Positions 26,008 to 54,418 of a DNA stretch of 64,000 bases are shown here, in pieces (position 1 is the stretch's first letter; each line of letters opens with the position of its first letter). Position numbers and translations under genes: made by a program. The notes under the pieces are model-generated. The model saw only the letters and a program-made list of their open reading frames with translations. It made no database searches and was not told the origin of the DNA. The stretch is taken from the NCBI RefSeq assembly GCF_988243305.1, contig NZ_OZ547136.1; one strand, 5' to 3'.

Positions 26008-28414
26008 GGGAGTTCTACCGCAGGGGCGGGGAACTCCAAGTGATATCCATCATCGCATCCAGTGCGTCCGGTTTATCCCCGCTGACGCGGGGAACTCCGT
26101 GTGGGAACTACGAGTAGGCCGTTTTCTCTCGGTTTATCCCCGCTGGCGCGGGGAACTCCAATATCCGCGCCGTACCCAGCAAATGCTGACGGTTTATCCC
26201 CGCTGGCGCGGGGAACTCTACCGCATATTCACCAAAGTCCTCTATTTTGTCGGTTTATCCCCGCTGACGCGGGGAACTCGAGCGGACGCTCGACGATAAC
26301 ACCGATTTGCAAGGTTTATCCCCGCTGGCGCGGGGAACTCCAATATCCGCGCCGTACCCAGCAAATGCTGACGGTTTATCCCCGCTGGCGCGGGGAACTC
26401 TACCGCATATTCACCAAAGTCCTCTATTTTGTCGGTTTATCCCCGCTGACGCGGGGAACTCGAGCGGACGCTCGACGATAACACCGATTTGCAAGGTTTA
26501 TCCCCGCTGACGCGGGGAACTCCCGTCAGGCCGCGTCAATCGTTTAGCCCACGGCGGTTTATCCCCGCTGACGCGGGGAACTCACATGGAGTACATCATG
26601 AACAGACCACTGACCCGGTTTATCCCCGCTGACGCGGGGAACTCAGATTTTAGATGAGATGAAGTTGAATAGTTTACGGTTTATCCCCGCTGACGCGGGG
26701 AACTCATAAATCATTCTTTTCTTTCATCACCTACGACCGGTTTATCCCCGCTGACGCGGGAAACTCCTGTAGACGTTCTTTGGTAATGGTTTTCATCACG
26801 GTTTATCCCCGCTGACGCGGGGAACTCAATACTACAAACATCAAATGCGTTATTTACTGCGGTTTATCCCCGCTGACGCGGGGAACTCTAAGCCGTGACG
26901 AGGGTCGCCGCTGGCGTCAACGGTTTATCCCCGCTGACGCGGGGAACTCTTACAGATGTAATAAATCACACATGTAATAGCCGGTTTATCCCCGCTGACG
27001 CGGGGAACTCGATCGGGAGGATTTTAAACGCTGGTCAATGGCCGGTTTATCCCCGCTGACGCGGGGAACTCAATTACCGGGTGTCTAGTGCTCATACGCA
27101 GCCCGGTTTATCCCCGCTGACGCGGGGAACTCAATTACTGGGTGTCTCGTGCTCATATGCAGCCCGGTTTATCCCCGCTGACGCGGGGAACTCTTTCCCC
27201 CATGCGGGAAGCGCGTGCGATTTCGCGGTTTATCCCCGCTGACGCGGGGAACTCTTTTAGGTGTGCTGAGATTATTTGTCGCGGCGCGGTTTATCCCCGC
27301 TGACGCGGGGAACTCTTATCAGCAGCCAGACCAGCATTCGGGGAATACGGTTTATCCCCGCTGACGCGGGGAACTCATGATCAAATCAGTGCCGAGCTGG
27401 TGCAGATGCGGTTTATCCCCGCTGACGCGGGGAACTCAAAACAGGTTTGCCTGTCGCCCTCCGGTCCACCGGTTTATCCCCGCTGACGCGGGGAACTCCA
27501 ATCCGTTTATTACTTTATTTCTGCCGCCTTCGGTTTATCCCCGCTGACGCGGGGAACTCCAACGTTTTGGTAATCAACGGAAGGAGCTTCGCGGTTTATC
27601 CCCGCTGACGCGGGGAACTCAATAAATTCAGGAGCGGTAACGATATATTTAACGGTTTATCCCCGCTGACGCGGGGAACTCGTAAAGGCGTTGCCCTGTT
27701 CCGTCGCTGTTGTCGGTTTATCCCCGCTGACGCGGGGAACTCATCCGTTAATTATTGAGAGAGCTATCAGCTATCGGTTTATCCCCGCTGACGCGGGGAA
27801 CTCACCATCAGTCCTTGAGCCGAGAAAATCGCCGCCGGTTTATCCCCGCTGACGCGGGGAACTCAGCTATATACGGGAGCAAGATTATAATATCTGCGGT
27901 TTATCCCCGCTGACGCGGGGAACTCTTTCGCCCAATCTTGCGCGCTCTGACCTATCTGGGTTTATCCCCGCTGACGCGGGGAACTCGTGGGTGGCTGCCG
28001 TCGCGGCTGGTGCTGCGGCGGTTTATCCCCGCTGACGCGGGGAACTCACTGAGTATTTGCCTCAAGTGATGTACTGGTCCGGTTTATCCCCGCTGACGCG
28101 GGGAACTCAATATCGCCGTCAATGCCAATATTTTTCCGCGCGGTTTATCCCCGCTGACGCGGGGAACTCGTGAAAATAGAGGAAGGGCGCATTATTGGCG
28201 GCGGTTTATCCCCGCTGACGCGGGGAACTCGCGTCAGAAGCGATTGAATCAATAGCGGATCACGGTTTATCCCCGCTGACGCGGGGAACTCGTCCATTTT
28301 CCCCCTGGAGGCTGTAATTCACCGCGGTTTATCCCCGCTGACGCGGGGAACTCTTATTCAGCCAACGCGGCGCGGGGCTTGTTTGCGGTTTATCCCCGCT
28401 GACGCGGGGAACTC
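26008..28414 (-). CRISPR. Type I-E CRISPR array: 39 full 29-bp repeats plus one degenerate terminal repeat, 39 spacers (36 unique)
   Basis: Repeat CGGTTTATCCCCGCTG(G/A)CGCGGGGAACTC on the plus strand at about 61-bp period from 26069 to 28386; degenerate repeat 26008-26036 at the iap end; leader at the cas2 end, so the array is transcribed on the minus strand. Confidence 0.97.
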
Positions 28415-28519
28415 TCTAAAAGTATACATTTGTTCTTAAAGCATTTTTTCCCATAAAAACAACCCACCAACCTTAATGTAACATTTCCTTATTATTAAAG
28501 ATCAGCTAATTCTTTGTTT
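28415..28519 (-). promoter_or_regulatory. CRISPR leader
   Basis: AT-rich about 105-bp segment between the last repeat and the cas2 stop. Confidence 0.7.
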
Positions 28520-29723
<1,204 letters not shown>

Positions 29724-29738
29724 TTTATTACACCTAAA

Positions 29739-30338
29739 TCACAGTGGAGCCAAAGATAGCAAGCCACATCCCATCGATTTAGCTGGCCCAATACCTTGCT
29801 GTACAAGATCTATTAACGCTGGCGCGTCGTTGATGGTGATCACCCCTTCAAAGCAAACCGTTTGAATCTTTCCACTTTTACCATCACCAGAAAAATACTG
29901 TGGCCGTTCCGATATGGGATGCACATCTTCAACGCGCGCCGCATTGCCCAATTTACGTTGCAACCACGCGATTTGTTCTGCTTCTTTTATTAACGGAACC
30001 CGACAGCGTTTAATATTCCCTTTACTATCCAGGCGCTTTTGATTGTCGAGAATAGTTTTGATCGGATTTGCCCGAAGCCGAAAATAGAGTGGAACACCAA
30101 CCTGAAGTTGAAATTCAACCTGTTTAGTTTTAATGACTGTCGCAACAGCAGTTGAAACAGGCATTTGCGCTGACTGCAATAAAACATGACAGCCTTCTGG
30201 TGTGTTTCGCTTCTCAACATGAAAAAGAAAATCACGAGCAGCATCCGGTCTGTTTGGAAATAAATGCCATAATCCCTGGTGAAGTTGGTAAAGATCCCTG
30301 CTCCAGGCCCTGGCAATGATGACTTTACTGAGATACAT
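29739..30338 (-). CDS. casE: crRNA endoribonuclease Cas6e (CasE)
   Basis: 199-aa ORF MYLSKVIIARAWSRDLYQLHQGLWHLFPNRPDAARDFLFHVEKR... Confidence 0.95.
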   Translation of the reverse strand: MYLSKVIIARAWSRDLYQLHQGLWHLFPNRPDAARDFLFHVEKRNTPEGCHVLLQSAQMPVSTAVATVIKTKQVEFQLQVGVPLYFRLRANPIKTILDNQKRLDSKGNIKRCRVPLIKEAEQIAWLQRKLGNAARVEDVHPISERPQYFSGDGKSGKIQTVCFEGVITINDAPALIDLVQQGIGPAKSMGCGLLSLAPL

Positions 30339-30999
30339 CCATACCTCCTTTAATCACATACCATTCTCGGGAAGCAAATTGTCGAGGTAAGGTGATCATC
30401 GGTTCGTCGCGCGCCGTAAATTTTAAATGATGCCCTGTAACTGATTCCTCACTATAAATATCGCCGCCAACGGGCTCATAATTTAATAGCGCCTTCTGAG
30501 GATCCGATGCCTGACATGTCCCCAAAAAAAGCGGGTGTGTTAGTGGGCAACTTCTCCGCCCCAGGTAGGGTGTATACCGAGGCTTTAATACTGCTTTTTC
30601 AAGTTCTGAGATAACCATCGTTGCATGGGGTGTTAACCAGAGAGCGACGGTAAAGGAGGCATCACATAAATATTCGCGCCATGTTTGAATCGTTTCATGA
30701 CTTTTCAAACCACGGTAATCTTCTCGCGCTCCAAGGACTGTATGGTAATCACGCAACCCCGTTACAGACACACGACGATCGTCAAGAATGAGTTCATCGC
30801 AGCGCACTGCAAATTGCACACTCTCTGATAACACCTGTAATGAAGAAGTATCATCACGTTGGATCCCAAGACAAGCCCCGAGTAGCCCTAATAACCCGCT
30901 TCGGGTCGGAAAACTTCCGGTAGGTCGCGTTCCTTCAAAGGTCGGCAGCCCCCAGGCTTGCATTGGCCCAGCAAGCCGCAAGATCAAATAAGATCTCAT
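30325..30999 (-). CDS. casD: Cascade subunit Cas5e (CasD)
   Basis: ORF contains MRSYLILRLAGPMQAWGLPTFEGTRPTG...; start placed at the second ATG. Confidence 0.93.
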   Translation of the reverse strand: MRSYLILRLAGPMQAWGLPTFEGTRPTGSFPTRSGLLGLLGACLGIQRDDTSSLQVLSESVQFAVRCDELILDDRRVSVTGLRDYHTVLGAREDYRGLKSHETIQTWREYLCDASFTVALWLTPHATMVISELEKAVLKPRYTPYLGRRSCPLTHPLFLGTCQASDPQKALLNYEPVGGDIYSEESVTGHHLKFTARDEPMITLPRQFASREWYVIKGGMDVSQ

Positions 31000-31001
31000 G
31001 T

Positions 31002-32093
31002 TCATGCCTCGCCATTATTACGAACCCAGGATTTTAACTGTTCTAAAGTAGGCATTTGTTTAACTTGAGCAGTAATTGGGTCTACATCAGATAAGCTGAA
31101 TTGCGCAGCAGCTCCGTTCAGACCATATCCATTGGCAACGCGATCCCAATATTGATTAAACGCCTGTATAGACGGTTGCAAAAAGCCATCTTTCGCTTTA
31201 ACAGCTTTTTCAAAAGCATTTGCCATAGAAAGTGGCATATCGGAGAAATTAACCATTACCATATCCGCAGGGTTAAAAGCGGCATAAGTACGCTGTTTTG
31301 CTCCAGGGACCTCTGTTGCCAGCATATGAACAACATTGGTTGCAATTTCCAGAGCCTGCTCCCTGGAGGCACCACCTAAATTTTCCTGAAGTTGAGCGAG
31401 GTTAATGTTGGCGTAACGATAAAAAACACCCGATGAAAATTCCTGAGTTCCCAGATGTGCAGAACCTTGTTCCTGTAAATCATCTACAGCGGTGAACCAG
31501 TCAATATCTGAATCAACCTGATGAGTAGTGATCGCATGCGCAATGGACATTGCACCATCAACTTTTCCCAACTCACTCATCATGCCGCTGGTTGCCATTC
31601 TTCCGCTAAGCGCAATATCAACACCCTGCTGTAAATTCACACGTATGGCGGCAATATCTTCCTTAAGAACTTTGAGCAGCTTTTTATCATCCAGATTATC
31701 AGCCTCTGCTTTTGCAACCTGCTCACAGAACCAGGCTATTTCTCCCACAACCCAGGGAGTAACCGCATCGGCAGAAATCTTTTCGGCTTCATCAACTAAT
31801 TTACCGGAGAGCAGCGCTAATGTCTTATCGATGATTTTTTGGTCAAAACGTTCACCAAGTTTTTGCCGAAGAACATCACGTAATTGTGCAAGATGAATTG
31901 TTCTGAGACTGGATTCACCAATATTTTGTGCGTAATAATCACTTTTACGCATCGCACGTTTAAGGCTTTGACTTGAAATTCTTACTCGTCTTTTCCCGCC
32001 GAAAATAGCGTCTTTCTGCATGTTCATATCGTCGCGGTTCAGACATGAAGGGCTGTGAGAGATCAGAACATGAATATTGATAAAGTTAGACAT
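31002..32093 (-). CDS. casC: Cascade backbone subunit Cas7e (CasC)
   Basis: 363-aa [52 protein letters not shown]... Confidence 0.95.
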
Positions 32094-32105
32094 AGAAAGG
32101 TTTCC

Positions 32106-32588
32106 TTACGCATTTTTGTTTGTGGTCAATACAAAATCTTCCAGAAGTTGCTGGCGTTCGCGCTTTCCCCACCAGGTCAACATCCTGGCCATTAATGGCC
32201 AGTCAAGTACGGGTTCGGCGTGAGTAAGTAATCGACGTAACTGGACCATATCGGCTGTTCTGTCAGCCCGAATTAATTGAAAGATACGGCGCTCGTTAAT
32301 TCTTCCACTATTGGCTAAAGCTCTTCCCAACGAGATACCTGTTGTTTGCTCCGGTTTTTTGTCCTGATGTCGGATGACATTCTTTCCTGCGCTCAGGCAA
32401 AACACCATGCGCAAAAGAGCCTGCTGGTGACGTGGGTTTTCCCAACCAAAAGGTTGCACCAACCGATAAAACGCAGGGATATCGCGTAATTCATCAGGTT
32501 CTGAAACACGTCTAATTTGCGCACATGCTCCATTATCCAGTTGTTGCCAGGCTCGATATAAAGCCATTGCATCAATTTCATCAGCCAT
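32106..32588 (-). CDS. casB: Cascade small subunit Cse2 (CasB)
   Basis: 160-aa ORF MADEIDAMALYRAWQQLDNGACAQIRRVSEPDELRDIPAFYRLVQPFG... Confidence 0.95.
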   Translation of the reverse strand: MADEIDAMALYRAWQQLDNGACAQIRRVSEPDELRDIPAFYRLVQPFGWENPRHQQALLRMVFCLSAGKNVIRHQDKKPEQTTGISLGRALANSGRINERRIFQLIRADRTADMVQLRRLLTHAEPVLDWPLMARMLTWWGKRERQQLLEDFVLTTNKNA

Positions 32589-34089
32589 TTGATGGCCCTC
32601 CTTGCGGTTTTAACTCCCGTAAATGTTTGTATAGCGTGGCGCGGGCAAGCGCTAATGTGCTTATTAATTTAGGATGATGTGCATAGGGAGCTACAGATTG
32701 ATTAAATAGCATTTCACACAATTGATGAAGTTTGTCTCGTAAATCAGCTATTACCTCATCAGCCTGGGAAAAATTAATTTTCGCCAATACATCTGGAATT
32801 AATAATTCACTCTGTCGATAGAAATGCCTTTCTGCAGTCTCATGAACAGAGACTCCGGCCCCTTTGAAGTCTTTATTTTTAAACCCTTCTGCAAAGGTAT
32901 ATAACGCCTTGCGTAAGGCTGTTTTATACCCCAAACCAACAGTCACTATTTCGTTTATAACATTGCCGTATTGTTGCCACCCCTGATTAAACATCAGCAC
33001 ATCATGACGTCGTTCAAGAATAGATGCTTGATTATTACGATATCCCCCCATAATCAATTCAAGAGGACTTTGCGGCGCAATATTTCTGAATTGATTCACA
33101 ACCGCCGCCACGCGATTTCCATTTTCATTTTGAATAATCTTATCTACCACAACTCGGCTGATTTGCGTCCATGATGGTGCGGAGGTGGTGAAAGCAAGAA
33201 ATTTTTCCTCAACCTTCCCTTTCTTGACTGTTACCAGACAAGGGGAATGCGGATGGGGCCATAGTCCATTAACTGTAAAGGTAAATTTTTCCTTAAGAAA
33301 ACCGGTATAACGCAAATTGCTTTCCTGTCCACAGCAAGAACATTTACCAATCCCAATGGGATCGCATAGTTCAATATGCGCTGGTTGCCAGAATAAACCA
33401 CGGACAAACCCAATTGACGAAGCTGGCACAGATTCATTGGGCTTGATAGGCTTAATCCAGGTAGGTTGGTTTTCCGTATGTAATTCATTGGGAAATTGTT
33501 TTTGAAGACGAGGTATTGTGAGGACATTGAGTAATACCGTCGAGCGAAGATCGATCCCACATACGAAGGTGGTTATAGGTGTTCCTCCACGTAAACCGCT
33601 TTTAAAGCCACCACCAAAACCAGGTGCCTGATTCGCCTGGTTGAATAACGCAATCGCAGTGCATCCACCACATAATGCTTCACCCTGCCCCGGTTGATTG
33701 ACAAATGCACAATTCGTCGCGCCGCTTACCCCAGCCAACAGTTTTTCCATTGGAGTCACATCATTTGCTTTGACACCTTTGGTCTGCATAAAGGGATGTT
33801 CTGCGTGATTAAGGTAGAACATATCTATCCACGGCGCGATGAGTTGTTGAAACTCATCTTCAGTGAGCGGATTCATTATGCGATGTCGAAATTCAACGTC
33901 ATCTTTTGCCGGGGCGATAATTTGTCCAATGCAAACCAGCAGTGCTAAAGCGGCCAGTTCCATATCGTCACGGGGCAAACTTAATCGCCACTGATCTCTA
34001 CTGCAGTATAGCGATTGCAGATTTAGGATTTGGACTTTCCCCCCGTTTCGCGGGCGTACAGGGATCCAGTTATCAATAAGCAAATTCAT
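32581..34089 (-). CDS. casA: Cascade large subunit Cse1 (CasA)
   Basis: 502-aa ORF MNLLIDNWIPVRPRNGGKVQILNLQSLYCSRDQWRLSLPRDDMELAA... Confidence 0.95.
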   Translation of the reverse strand: MNLLIDNWIPVRPRNGGKVQILNLQSLYCSRDQWRLSLPRDDMELAALALLVCIGQIIAPAKDDVEFRHRIMNPLTEDEFQQLIAPWIDMFYLNHAEHPFMQTKGVKANDVTPMEKLLAGVSGATNCAFVNQPGQGEALCGGCTAIALFNQANQAPGFGGGFKSGLRGGTPITTFVCGIDLRSTVLLNVLTIPRLQKQFPNELHTENQPTWIKPIKPNESVPASSIGFVRGLFWQPAHIELCDPIGIGKCSCCGQESNLRYTGFLKEKFTFTVNGLWPHPHSPCLVTVKKGKVEEKFLAFTTSAPSWTQISRVVVDKIIQNENGNRVAAVVNQFRNIAPQSPLELIMGGYRNNQASILERRHDVLMFNQGWQQYGNVINEIVTVGLGYKTALRKALYTFAEGFKNKDFKGAGVSVHETAERHFYRQSELLIPDVLAKINFSQADEVIADLRDKLHQLCEMLFNQSVAPYAHHPKLISTLALARATLYKHLRELKPQGGPSNG

Positions 34090-34504
34090 TTGTTCTCCTT
34101 CATATGCTCCGACATTTCTCCTGCATTTCTATACGTCGGAACACTTCCGTTATCGGTAAAAACAAAGAAAAAATACGGCGTAATTAATTCAATAATCACA
34201 TTCACTGCAAAAATATATTCATTGGTTTAATACAATTAACCTATGCATATATTAAGATGTGTTGAATTGTTTAAAGACAATAATGCATGCATTTCAAATC
34301 TGCAAGTTATTCGTTTTATTATCAAAGAAATTTTTTAGTTATAATAATTACCATAAATTTTATTACATAAAATATTCATACTGTGAATATAAAATCTCAT
34401 ACCGGGAAATTAAAAGAAGATGTACATTGTGCACCTTCCCTACTTAAGTAGGGATAAACCGTTATTGGTCTTGTTATCGTCATTGATACCAATCATTCCC
34501 GAAG
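34090..34504 (-). promoter_or_regulatory. AT-rich casA-cas3 intergenic region; expected site of the Cascade operon promoter and divergent antisense promoter
   Basis: 415-bp strongly AT-rich non-coding segment directly upstream of casA; in E. coli type I-E loci this region carries the H-NS-repressed, LeuO-activated promoter (established knowledge; exact -10/-35 elements not pinned down here). Confidence 0.45.
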
Positions 34505-37171
34505 TTATTTGGGATTTGCAGGGATGACTCTGGTCATCCCTTCATCCCGAGTGTAGGTAATAACAATATTATTACCCTGCCAGATCCATCCATCCTGATT
34601 CTGTTTCCCTTCCAGCCAAAGTAACCCATCTTCATCTACTACTTCAGAAAAACTACGTTTCCAGGTGAAGGGTACATTGACGCGATTAAGTGCTAACGCC
34701 TCATACTGCTGTTCATGACTTAGGTCCTCGTAGACCTGGCCATCGAGCAGTTGTTTACCTGAAGACGTTTGTACATAAGGCAATAATGGCAGGCTCATTT
34801 CCCCATCCCTCGTTACCGCAAGAATGGTTTCATCGTTATCCTGCAAGCTATATTCTTCAGCCCACTGCAGAACCTTACGAGCCTTGAACCTTTTTTCACA
34901 CTCGGCGCTTTCAAACTTATCCATGCCTTTGATGACCCATTCTGGCTCATCCATTTCCGCATCATCGTAAATGCTATCCAGCCATTGCCGGTAGGCATCA
35001 GGGAAAAATAAGGATGCTCCATTAAGTTCCTCAATATGTTGCTGCGTCCGCCACATGACTCTAACGTTGCTATAAATATGCTCATGTCGTCCGTAACCTT
35101 CGCCATCAGGCAGCAAAATGGTGGCAAGAGGAATCTCAAAACCAACGGGGCGATATTTACGATGATGGCGATGTAAACGGCCCAATCGTTGGAAAAGCAA
35201 ATCTGCGGGACAATGCTGAGTAATTAACCAATCAAAATCAACGTCGAGTGATTGTTCCACGACCTGTGTGGCAACAAGTATTCTTCCAACATTTCGCTCC
35301 CCATTTTTCCCAAAATTACTAATAACACGATTCTCTTTTTCACGGCGATCGTTCAGCGTAAAGCGCGCATGAAACAAATCTATATCTACTTGCGTGTTAT
35401 TTAGTTCCTTTAACCGTTGGTGGCATAGTTGTGCAACATCAACCAAATTGCAGATAAGACAGACTTGTGCACCCGCATTTGCCGCTGCGATCATTCGCTC
35501 TAACATCGTAAGGTCAGGTAACATGTCAGCTAAATAAATAGGTTCTGGCTGAATCGAAAAGCGGGGCGGGAGTTGTTCTGGATGAGCTAACAGATCAAAA
35601 CGTTGCGCACCATTCACACCTCGCCAGTTAATGAGTGGATATGCGGAGTTATTTTCCTCTGGATCTGTATGCAGACCATAAGTATCCAGAAGTTTCTGTT
35701 TTTGTTTCATTGGTAGAGTTGCGGAAAGAAGAATAACACTCCCCCCCACATCAGCCTGAGCCTTGAGCACAGCCTCCAGCAAGCCGTTCATATACGTGTC
35801 GTAAGCATGAACTTCATCAACAATTAAAACACTTCGACCAATTCCCAAACCACGGATAAAGCGGTGTTTAACTGGCAATACCGATATCAACACCTGATCA
35901 ATCGTGCAAACGCCTATTTGCCCAAGAAACACTTTCTTATTGCTTTGTGACAACCATTGGCAACACTGAACCCACGCTTCTTCTTGCCCCTGCTCAGTAA
36001 ATGCGCGTGATTTTATTGATTGAAAAAGGTGGTTAAAACGTGAATTACCATGAGCAAGAATAAGATTTGGGGAGGTAAATAAACGGCTCGCGTTCGCTTC
36101 CATTCTGCTGAGCATTGCATTTGCAGTAGCTTGTGTAGGGAGGGCAAAAATAACACTATCCGCAAGTTGTTGGTCAATAAGTTTCCAGGCATAGGCCAGC
36201 GCTGTTTCGGTTTTACCTGATCCCGTAGGTGCCTCAATCACCGTCAGCCCGGGAGCTGTAGGAAGAGCATCAACCAACACCTGTAATTGTCTTGGTTGAT
36301 AGCCATTGTCCAGTAAGGCATGTACGCCGTCATAACTACGCTTATTTGATACAAGGCCACTCAACTCAAGTACCCGACACGCATCCTGTTGTCTATCCTG
36401 AAAATATTTTCTTAGCGCTTGTATGCCTGAAGGTGCATCTTCTTTGAATAGAAAGGTATCCGTTGTGGTCCAGGAACCTAACCAGTCAGCAAGCGAGCAA
36501 AAACCTGCTAACAATGATGAACAATCAGGTGGTATATCGTTTATAGATAACCCGGCTGGTGTTAAAAATAATGCTTCGAGTACAGATATCCACTCCTCAC
36601 GAGCCTGTTTATCTTGCGCAGCATAAGATGCCAGAGAAGCTGGCATTTCCCAACGCGACTTATCTTGATCCTGGGAATGTAATATAAAACCATGATGTCC
36701 TGTAACGGCCTCTACCCAAGGAAACCAGGACTCATAAGGATGAGGAGCGGCATCAAAAAAACTGAAAAAATCCCCGGGAGATTGCTCTGAAAGTGAATCC
36801 TGGTTAAACCAATACAGACCGGCTGCACCATGATTAAATTTACGGCACATTTGTGTTGATGGACCATTAAGTGATGGCGTTGCAGGATTTAATTTCAGCC
36901 AACTTTCTGCTGATTTATATTGGAATCGTATATCAAACTTTCCGATATCATGAAGGGCAATGAAAAATAACAGCCAGGCTTTCACCTTCTGTTTTGATAG
37001 CATTTCATTTCGGCAAAAAGCATTTTGTAGTACGACTGATTGATCCCACCAGCAATCTGCAACAGCTGCAACATCCAGGCAATGATAAATCAACAGATGA
37101 ATATCATTTCCTTTCGTCAGGCTTTTTGAGGATTTCCCCCAGTAATGACATATATATTTAAAAGGTTCCAT
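34505..37171 (-). CDS. cas3: CRISPR-associated nuclease/helicase Cas3 (type I-E)
   Basis: 888-aa ORF MEPFKYICHYWGKSSKSLTKGNDIHLLIYHCLDVAAV... with HD domain followed by DEAD/DEAH helicase motifs (APTGSGKT, DEVH). Confidence 0.95.
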   Translation of the reverse strand: MEPFKYICHYWGKSSKSLTKGNDIHLLIYHCLDVAAVADCWWDQSVVLQNAFCRNEMLSKQKVKAWLLFFIALHDIGKFDIRFQYKSAESWLKLNPATPSLNGPSTQMCRKFNHGAAGLYWFNQDSLSEQSPGDFFSFFDAAPHPYESWFPWVEAVTGHHGFILHSQDQDKSRWEMPASLASYAAQDKQAREEWISVLEALFLTPAGLSINDIPPDCSSLLAGFCSLADWLGSWTTTDTFLFKEDAPSGIQALRKYFQDRQQDACRVLELSGLVSNKRSYDGVHALLDNGYQPRQLQVLVDALPTAPGLTVIEAPTGSGKTETALAYAWKLIDQQLADSVIFALPTQATANAMLSRMEANASRLFTSPNLILAHGNSRFNHLFQSIKSRAFTEQGQEEAWVQCCQWLSQSNKKVFLGQIGVCTIDQVLISVLPVKHRFIRGLGIGRSVLIVDEVHAYDTYMNGLLEAVLKAQADVGGSVILLSATLPMKQKQKLLDTYGLHTDPEENNSAYPLINWRGVNGAQRFDLLAHPEQLPPRFSIQPEPIYLADMLPDLTMLERMIAAANAGAQVCLICNLVDVAQLCHQRLKELNNTQVDIDLFHARFTLNDRREKENRVISNFGKNGERNVGRILVATQVVEQSLDVDFDWLITQHCPADLLFQRLGRLHRHHRKYRPVGFEIPLATILLPDGEGYGRHEHIYSNVRVMWRTQQHIEELNGASLFFPDAYRQWLDSIYDDAEMDEPEWVIKGMDKFESAECEKRFKARKVLQWAEEYSLQDNDETILAVTRDGEMSLPLLPYVQTSSGKQLLDGQVYEDLSHEQQYEALALNRVNVPFTWKRSFSEVVDEDGLLWLEGKQNQDGWIWQGNNIVITYTRDEGMTRVIPANPK

Positions 37172-53370: not shown

Positions 53371-53508
53371 TGGTTATCCCCGCTGACGTGGGGAACATAA
53401 GTTCGACAACTTAAAAAATGATAACAAGTCCGGTTTATCCCCGCTGATGCAGGGAACATAATAAAAACTTTAACTAGTTCGGTTTATCCCTGTTGTTACA
53501 AGGAATAT
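53371..53508 (-). CRISPR. Degenerate CRISPR remnant (three decayed repeat-like units)
   Basis: TGGTTATCCCCGCTGACGTGGGGAACAT / CGGTTTATCCCCGCTGATGCAGGGAACAT / CGGTTTATCCCTGTTGTTACAAGGAATAT separated by 32-nt and about 20-nt spacers. Confidence 0.7.
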
Positions 53509-53962: not shown

Positions 53963-54418
53963 TGGTTTATCCCCGCTGGCGCGGGGAACTCCGTCAGTGT
54001 GCCAGTTGCTACTGTTTCCCATACGGTTTATCCCCGCTGACGCGGGGAACTCATCAGTGATATCCAACATTGCGGAGCTAAACGCGGTTTATCCCCGCTG
54101 GCGCGGGGAACTCTATAAATGTGCCATATACGGCGTTTGTTGCCTCGGTTTATCCCCGCTGGCGCGGGGAACTCCTCCCGGTGATGCGGGTTATGTGGCC
54201 TGCCGCCGGTTTATCCCCGCTGGCGCGGGGAACTCTTCGCCGCGTCAACAATTCGGACCTGTAAATCCGGTTTATCCCCGCTGGCGCGGGGAACTCATCC
54301 GGCGAACGCGCTACAGAGTACAGTTCACCGGTTTATCCCCGCTGGCGCGGGGAACTCGGAAACCGCCCCGGCGGTGGTTAGCTGTTTGCCGGTTTATCCC
54401 CGCTGGCGCGGGGAACTC
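53963..54418 (-). CRISPR. Second type I-E CRISPR array: 8 repeats, 7 spacers
   Basis: Same 29-bp repeat at 61-bp period (53963, 54024, 54085, 54146, 54207, 54268, 54329, 54390); AT-rich leader-like sequence beginning TCTCTAAA at the high-coordinate end, as in array 1. Confidence 0.93.

Follow-up and report, generated by a model that had tools for sequence, protein, structure and literature searches.

How does a CRISPR array come to hold two neighbouring spacers that differ at only three of 32 positions? Two such spacers, A and B, lie side by side in the window, the 64,000-nucleotide stretch of DNA that was analysed. By direct comparison, both 32-nt spacers are present at the positions and with the sequences that an earlier note on this DNA had given for them. 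That note read the pair as independent acquisitions from two related mobile elements and not as a duplication followed by mutation.

The window contains the E. coli iap-CRISPR1-cas type I-E locus, which is of an ordinary and already known kind (Table 1). On the + strand, the array repeat reads CGGTTTATCCCCGCTG[A/G]CGCGGGGAACTC. The repeat, CGGTTTATCCCCGCTGACGCGGGGAACTC, is 29 nt long and partly palindromic, with the stem CCCCGC/GCGGGG, and the spacers are 32 nt. The sequence properties that define a type I-E array were all found: the sizes of repeat and spacer, a leader, a complete cas3-casABCDE-cas1-cas2 operon, and a 5'-AAG PAM whose G is copied in. The cas ORFs of the window are all open and coincide, from cas2e through cas3, with the RefSeq annotation of Z1323HEC0462. 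The latter is 100% identical to the window over 28415-31400 and 98.6% identical onward; NY1601 is likewise 100% identical over 28415-31400. RefSeq gives the order cysD, iap, CRISPR, cas2e, cas1e, cas6e, cas5e, cas7e, casB, casA, cas3 in both NY1601 and Z1323HEC0462, and thus annotates the CRISPR between iap and cas2e, the same locus as in the window.

Table 1. Features of the array, its surroundings and a related array; positions are those of the window unless a contig is named.
Feature	Position	Strand	Remarks
E. coli CRISPR-1 (iap-proximal) type I-E array	26009-28414	-	39 spacers, 40 repeats, 61-nt period
Degenerate trailer (terminal) repeat	26009-26036	-	Far end from the leader
Perfect tandem duplication, 2 x 182 nt	26131-26312 and 26313-26494	-	Three repeat-spacer units, including a G/A repeat polymorphism
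Spacer A	27072-27103	-	Older; 22nd from leader; + strand AATTACCGGGTGTCTAGTGCTCATACGCAGCC; crRNA sense GGCTGCGTATGAGCACTAGACACCCGGTAATT
Consensus repeat between A and B	27104-27132	-	Identical to the flanking repeats
Spacer B	27133-27164	-	Newer; 21st from leader; + strand AATTACTGGGTGTCTCGTGCTCATATGCAGCC; crRNA sense GGCTGCATATGAGCACGAGACACCCAGTAATT
Further spacer	27621-27652	-	Exact in the N1420 prophage (L014 25171), AAG PAM; clade 1
Further spacer, tail-fibre gene	27682-27713	-	Exact at L014 31239 and L010 3488, AAG PAM; adjoins the 27621 spacer
AT-rich leader	28415-28519	-	Between first repeat and cas2e; layout matches annotated identical loci
Intact type I-E cas operon	28520-37171	-	cas2e, cas1e, cas6e, cas5e, cas7e, casB, casA, cas3
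Spacer W	L004 1501-1532		E. coli W array; repeat variant …AACAC, cas alleles different from those of the window

The leader lies at the high-coordinate end of the array, so the array is transcribed on the - strand and spacers enter at that end. The order cas2e-leader-array establishes this polarity, as does the AAG PAM of all four spacers that match phages. On the + strand, each of these spacers is followed by a C; the PAM-derived base is the C at 27104 for spacer A and the C at 27165 for spacer B. Since B is leader-proximal in an array of known polarity, it is the newer of the two, as had been proposed. The window also holds a second array (53964-54418) with the G-variant repeat and at least seven spacers, and a degenerate repeat pair flanking one spacer (53371-53459), about 500 bp before the second array. 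The spacers of the second array and of the degenerate pair had no match to the prophage loci examined.

A and B differ at exactly three places, + strand positions 7, 16 and 26, which correspond to positions 26, 17 and 7 in crRNA orientation. The earlier note had placed the third difference at 25, and had therefore seen three sites 9 nt apart in a single codon phase. The actual spacing is 9 and 10 nt, and the phases differ. Its crRNA positions 17 and 26 hold, and its position 8 becomes 7. The difference still falls in the seed, which Semenova et al. are said to have defined in 2011, for type I-E, as positions 1-5, 7 and 8. The probability of three or fewer mismatches is 7.5e-15 per random pair and approximately 5e-12 over all 703 spacer pairs. 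In all remaining pairs, at least 15 of the 32 positions differ, except for three identical pairs that stem from the 182-nt duplication. The resemblance of A and B is thus far beyond chance.

The target was reached through a match with four mismatches in E. coli N1420, which led to a 33-kb prophage next to tRNA-Leu. BLAST searches for A in phages and plasmids, and for B in phages, returned no protospacer, because the nearest isolated phages share at most 34% amino-acid identity with the target. Moreover, blastn with a word size of 11 cannot seed A on B-type targets, the longest common run being 9 nt. A was thus blind to clade-2 protospacers as a query, and the search was repeated with B. A degenerate-pattern, wobble-tolerant scan of GTDB representative genomes gave nothing. 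The same scan of IMG/VR and JGI metagenomes yielded the B allele and a third allele, W, and the A allele was missing from these two collections. The donor of A was predicted from the reading frames: the upstream protein should end in GCV, not GCI. Two GCV-ending proteins (P0014 and P0019) were present in a 90% cluster of homologues, and their contigs gave exact A.

Specifically, spacer A matches 32/32 positions in E. albertii GCA_040935765.1 (32-kb contig ABTRZK010000041.1, L010) and again in Logan SRR30000007 (L011). Spacer B matches 32/32 in IMG/VR contigs L005 and L007/L008, in metagenome contig L009, in Logan contig L015 and in the prophage of E. coli 40EC (L019). Allele W has an exact, AAG-preceded match in IMG/VR contig L006, and contigs L012 and L013 carry a one-step intermediate allele. 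The phage and plasmid collections in which the earlier note would have sought the protospacers gave no hit, and exact protospacers came instead from prophage, metagenome and Logan contigs. The AAG PAM, which it had proposed to look for beside both variants, was seen at all exact A and B protospacers.

The target is a rarely sequenced, HP1/K139-like temperate phage of Escherichia within the P2 family. The N1420 prophage encodes a P2-family capsid, GPO scaffold, ogr/Delta and a replication endonuclease, together with a tail sheath, tape measure, baseplate J and tail fibre. Among isolated phages, HP1/HP2, Pasteurella F108, Vibrio K139 and Aeromonas phiO18P come nearest, with ≤34% amino-acid identity. 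The best INPHARED matches, HP1 orf33 and K139 orf37, likewise reach at most 34%, so the collection holds no close isolate. The family occurs in 8 of 5,426 complete E. coli genomes. Its members carry a yidD-like gene at the right end and methyltransferase genes; the 40EC prophage has an additional cytosine methyltransferase and a ParE-like toxin. The N1420 prophage (L014 5338-38500) sits beside tRNA-Leu and yecA, and the 40EC prophage (L019 5784-38944) between mipA and yeaE. The prophage is absent from the genomes that carry the spacers, and a check for self-targeting found no copy of the protospacer in the window outside the array.

Over approximately 27 kb, the prophages of N1420 (clade 1) and 40EC (clade 2) share 79% identity, a value that also holds for A-type and B-type loci in the surroundings of the site. 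The protospacer lies in a locally conserved stretch of about 250 bp; its identity of 29/32 is in the top 12% of 32-nt windows. Based on these values, the donor of B is no point mutant of the donor of A. The suggestion that B represents re-immunisation against an escape variant has to be revised accordingly, as B was taken from a separate clade.

According to the RefSeq annotation, two tail-module genes overlap by an ATGA stop/start, and the protospacer extends across this overlap. The upstream gene, whose stop lies within the protospacer, encodes a 289-aa protein (phrog_1677). The downstream gene, whose start lies within it, encodes a protein of 211-218 aa (phrog_1398, Pfam PF25759 HP1_ORF34). 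Both are located just upstream of the gene for a 548-aa baseplate protein. In E. albertii (L010 6867-7523), the downstream gene is annotated from an internal ATG, giving 201 aa, and the start at the ATGA overlap gives 218 aa. The longer ORF is supported by the finding of only synonymous changes upstream of the internal ATG.

Along the coding strand of the phage, allele A reads GGC TGC GTA TGA (...G C V stop) in the upstream frame and ATG AGC ACT AGA CAC CCG GTA ATT (M S T R H P V I) in the downstream frame. Allele B has ATA TGA (Ile) upstream, and ACG and CCA downstream. Thus, the differences at 17 and 26 are synonymous wobble changes in codons of the downstream gene (Thr ACT/ACG and Pro CCG/CCA). 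The difference at position 7 affects the first base of the final amino-acid codon in the upstream gene (GTA Val/ATA Ile), whose frame is shifted by one relative to the downstream frame owing to the ATGA overlap. The proposal that all three differences are synonymous third-position changes is borne out for two sites; the third is a first-position Val/Ile change in the other frame. That both frames are really coding is evident from how the differences between clades 1 and 2 are spread over the three codon positions: 6/4/28 for the 100 codons that begin the downstream gene and 20/13/37 for the 100 that end the upstream one. Six natural alleles of the site vary at positions 2, 3, 7, 17, 20 and 26, four of the six being synonymous. 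The differences between A and B follow the coding constraints of the target and are ordinary inter-lineage polymorphisms. Seed positions were not significantly more polymorphic than non-seed positions (3/7 versus 3/25; Fisher one-sided p = 0.10), a comparison that is confounded by the gene junction.

The commonest clade-2 allele (L016-L018, protospacer start 2359; six complete E. coli genomes) differs from B at position 7 only, where it has C (Leu). Across the family, position 7 therefore has three alleles, G/A/C, giving Val/Ile/Leu. Owing to this C, both A and B face a G in the target strand at a seed position, the mismatch type reported as most disruptive (PMC6212716).

We are highly confident that allelic protospacers were acquired twice, independently, to give A and B, be the acquisitions naive or primed. 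The central proposal of the earlier note is thereby upheld: each spacer has a 32/32, AAG-flanked protospacer, and these lie in different prophage lineages. The competing account is that replication slippage duplicated one repeat-spacer unit in tandem and that three point mutations then arose in one copy. Duplications are indeed the commonest source of repeated spacers, accounting for 695 of 805 duplication candidates in SpacerPlacer (PMC11472070). The array of the window itself holds the 182-nt tandem duplication, which is recent, as NY1601 has one copy only of this segment. That true duplication is 100% identical, unlike A and B. Slippage and mutation would have had to turn one exact natural phage allele into a different one, and three random substitutions yield a particular allele in only about 1/134,000 cases (1/(C(32,3) x 27)). 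The three repeats that flank the spacers are unchanged, and the other spacers common to the window and NY1601 show 0 mismatches. With two natural alleles matched exactly and the repeats untouched, we rejected duplication plus mutation, whose probability is close to nil.

Two independent acquisitions would have required two separate integrations by Cas1-Cas2 of the same AAG-flanked 32-bp site, in identical register, from different phage lineages. A would have entered first, from a clade-1 phage whose allele is now found in the E. albertii prophage. B would have followed on the leader side, from a clade-2 phage whose allele is now found in the prophage of E. coli 40EC. Two successive integrations at the leader end, A and then B, are the simplest history. 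We found no array with A at the leader end but without B, and the order is consequently read from array polarity alone. This history presupposes a type I-E system that would have been expressed in nature.

Related arrays show that the site was captured more than twice. In NY1601, too, A and B are direct neighbours and keep their order. Allele W (crRNA sense GACTGCATATGAGCACGAGACACCCGGTAATT) is a spacer in the same register in 13 complete genomes, whose carriers are E. coli W and its derivatives, ST2350, B-766 and EC16. Two records among the 13 are labelled DH5alpha. Since W sits in an unrelated array and has its own exact phage match, alleles A, B and W amount to at least three captures of one site. 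These three alleles are recorded in two unrelated array lineages, that of the window and that of E. coli W.

The array of Z1323HEC0462 (L002 4606-5000) has six spacers beside cas genes identical to those of the window. Their order is 27621, 27682, 26889, 27011, one unique spacer and 27865, which differs from that of the window (26889-27897). The reordering indicates, as far as the sequences can tell, recombination or shuffling between arrays. Such rearrangement in the lineage lends some substance to another route to the pair, in which different strains or sister lineages each acquired one of the two spacers, and unequal crossover at repeats later juxtaposed them; the repeat-spacer-repeat units, 97% identical, could have promoted the pairing. 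We nevertheless consider this route improbable. The adjacency of A and B in the polarity of successive leader-end insertions is explained most simply by sequential acquisition, a crossover would need exactly the repeats that flank A and B, and NY1601 inherited the pair as a unit. Juxtaposition by recombination would, moreover, still need two independent acquisitions at the same site.

If A and B were acquired sequentially, did the first influence the second? Capture of the same site calls for a hot spot or selection, given that the prophage has 648 AAG sites. The repeated capture may thus reflect either an intrinsic acquisition hot spot or an advantage conferred by conservation of site and PAM across the clades. 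On the clade-2 target of 40EC, crRNA A meets an AAG PAM, and its three mismatches fall at position 7, in the seed (rG·dT), at 17 (rU·dC) and at 26 (rG·dT). All three leave the target strand free of a mismatched G, which is reported as the worst class for Cascade binding, and so belong to the type described as least harmful (PMC6212716). From the sequences, A alone should protect poorly against clade 2, which B matches perfectly. It is a reasonable expectation that crRNA A would have weakened interference on clade 2 and would retain the capacity for priming. Imperfect recognition of a clade-2 phage by crRNA A would then prime the capture of B. We regard priming of B by crRNA A as plausible but rather less likely than not.

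The two further spacers directed against this family bear on the same point. Spacers 27621 and 27682 are newer than A and B and are adjacent to each other. Their targets lie 10 kb and 4 kb, respectively, upstream of the A/B site on the same strand, such that all four family-directed spacers lie on one strand. Priming on phage genomes by the E. coli type I-E system yields a gradient of spacers upstream and on the same strand (PMC5389539; PMC10011333). Against an N1420-type phage, A has four mismatches and B three, with seed positions included, and A or B could have primed the later acquisition of both spacers. The geometry of priming rests on three independent sites, B itself being at distance zero from the A site. 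In the accessible literature, we found no statement that priming re-captures the priming site itself, and priming is not known to favour the very site that triggers it.

Alternatively, two unrelated, naive acquisitions could have occurred at an intrinsically hot protospacer without any part being played by crRNA A. This version of independent acquisition has a probability just short of even. Capture of the same site in the same register by the unrelated E. coli W-type array speaks for it, as three captures at one of 648 AAG sites point to a site-specific preference. In addition, both the site and its PAM are conserved in the two clades, with AAG in each, whereas the clade-2 PAM at the targets of 27621 and 27682 is AAA. 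However, the immediate proximity of A and B in the array, and the upstream arrangement of four spacers on one strand, are typical of primed rather than naive adaptation. Further, a hot spot defined by RecBCD would call for a Chi site. As none was found inside the prophage, the idea of a Chi-site hot spot was dropped.

A bolder proposal combines the two, making the site a natural 'updating' hot spot at which crRNA A, bearing mismatches to a diverged phage, guides the repeated capture of its own protospacer from that phage, with type I-E immunity genuinely engaged in nature against HP1/K139-like prophages. It would fit the three alleles in two array lineages, the triallelic seed position 7 and the C allele of clade 2. 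We nonetheless consider it unlikely.

Laboratory studies of CRISPR adaptation use the type I-E system of E. coli as their main model. Yet H-NS silences it under laboratory conditions, and its natural spacers rarely match known phages (PMC10011333). In the array described here, four spacers were traced to one rarely sequenced prophage family, with the correct PAM and on one strand, and one phage site is recorded twice, as two phage alleles, a natural example of allele tracking by CRISPR. This is small but concrete evidence that type I-E drew on temperate phages for its spacers in the wild, and did so in a manner that resembles priming. It also provides a defined pair of protospacer and phage with which the repeated capture of sites can be tested. 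The pair reveals no new mechanism; it is a tidy natural example in a standard array.

Three known systems come closest. The array shares with the CRISPR-1 of E. coli K-12 type its position in the order cysD-iap-array-leader-cas2e...cas3, the 29-nt repeat, the 32-nt spacers, the AAG PAM, and a last repeat base that is derived from the PAM. It differs in the A of the hairpin loop in most repeats of the window (GCTGACGCG) and in its strain-specific spacer content. With primed adaptation in E. coli type I-E, it shares an older, partly matching spacer with a consensus PAM on the donor element. It may also share the origin of the newer spacers, which were taken from that element at upstream sites of one strand, all with AAG (PMC5389539; PMC5059440). 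However, the accessible literature does not present re-capture of the priming protospacer as typical, and in the present case it is inferred from a natural array. Finally, as in the independent insertions and reacquisitions of SpacerPlacer, one protospacer is represented more than once without duplication. Such events are rare: 7 independent insertions and 8 reacquisitions were reported among 24,090 spacers (PMC11472070). Clustering of spacers by identity may treat A and B as unrelated. Unlike the SpacerPlacer cases, A and B are allelic, with three differences, are adjacent in the array, and are each traced to a phage clade of their own.
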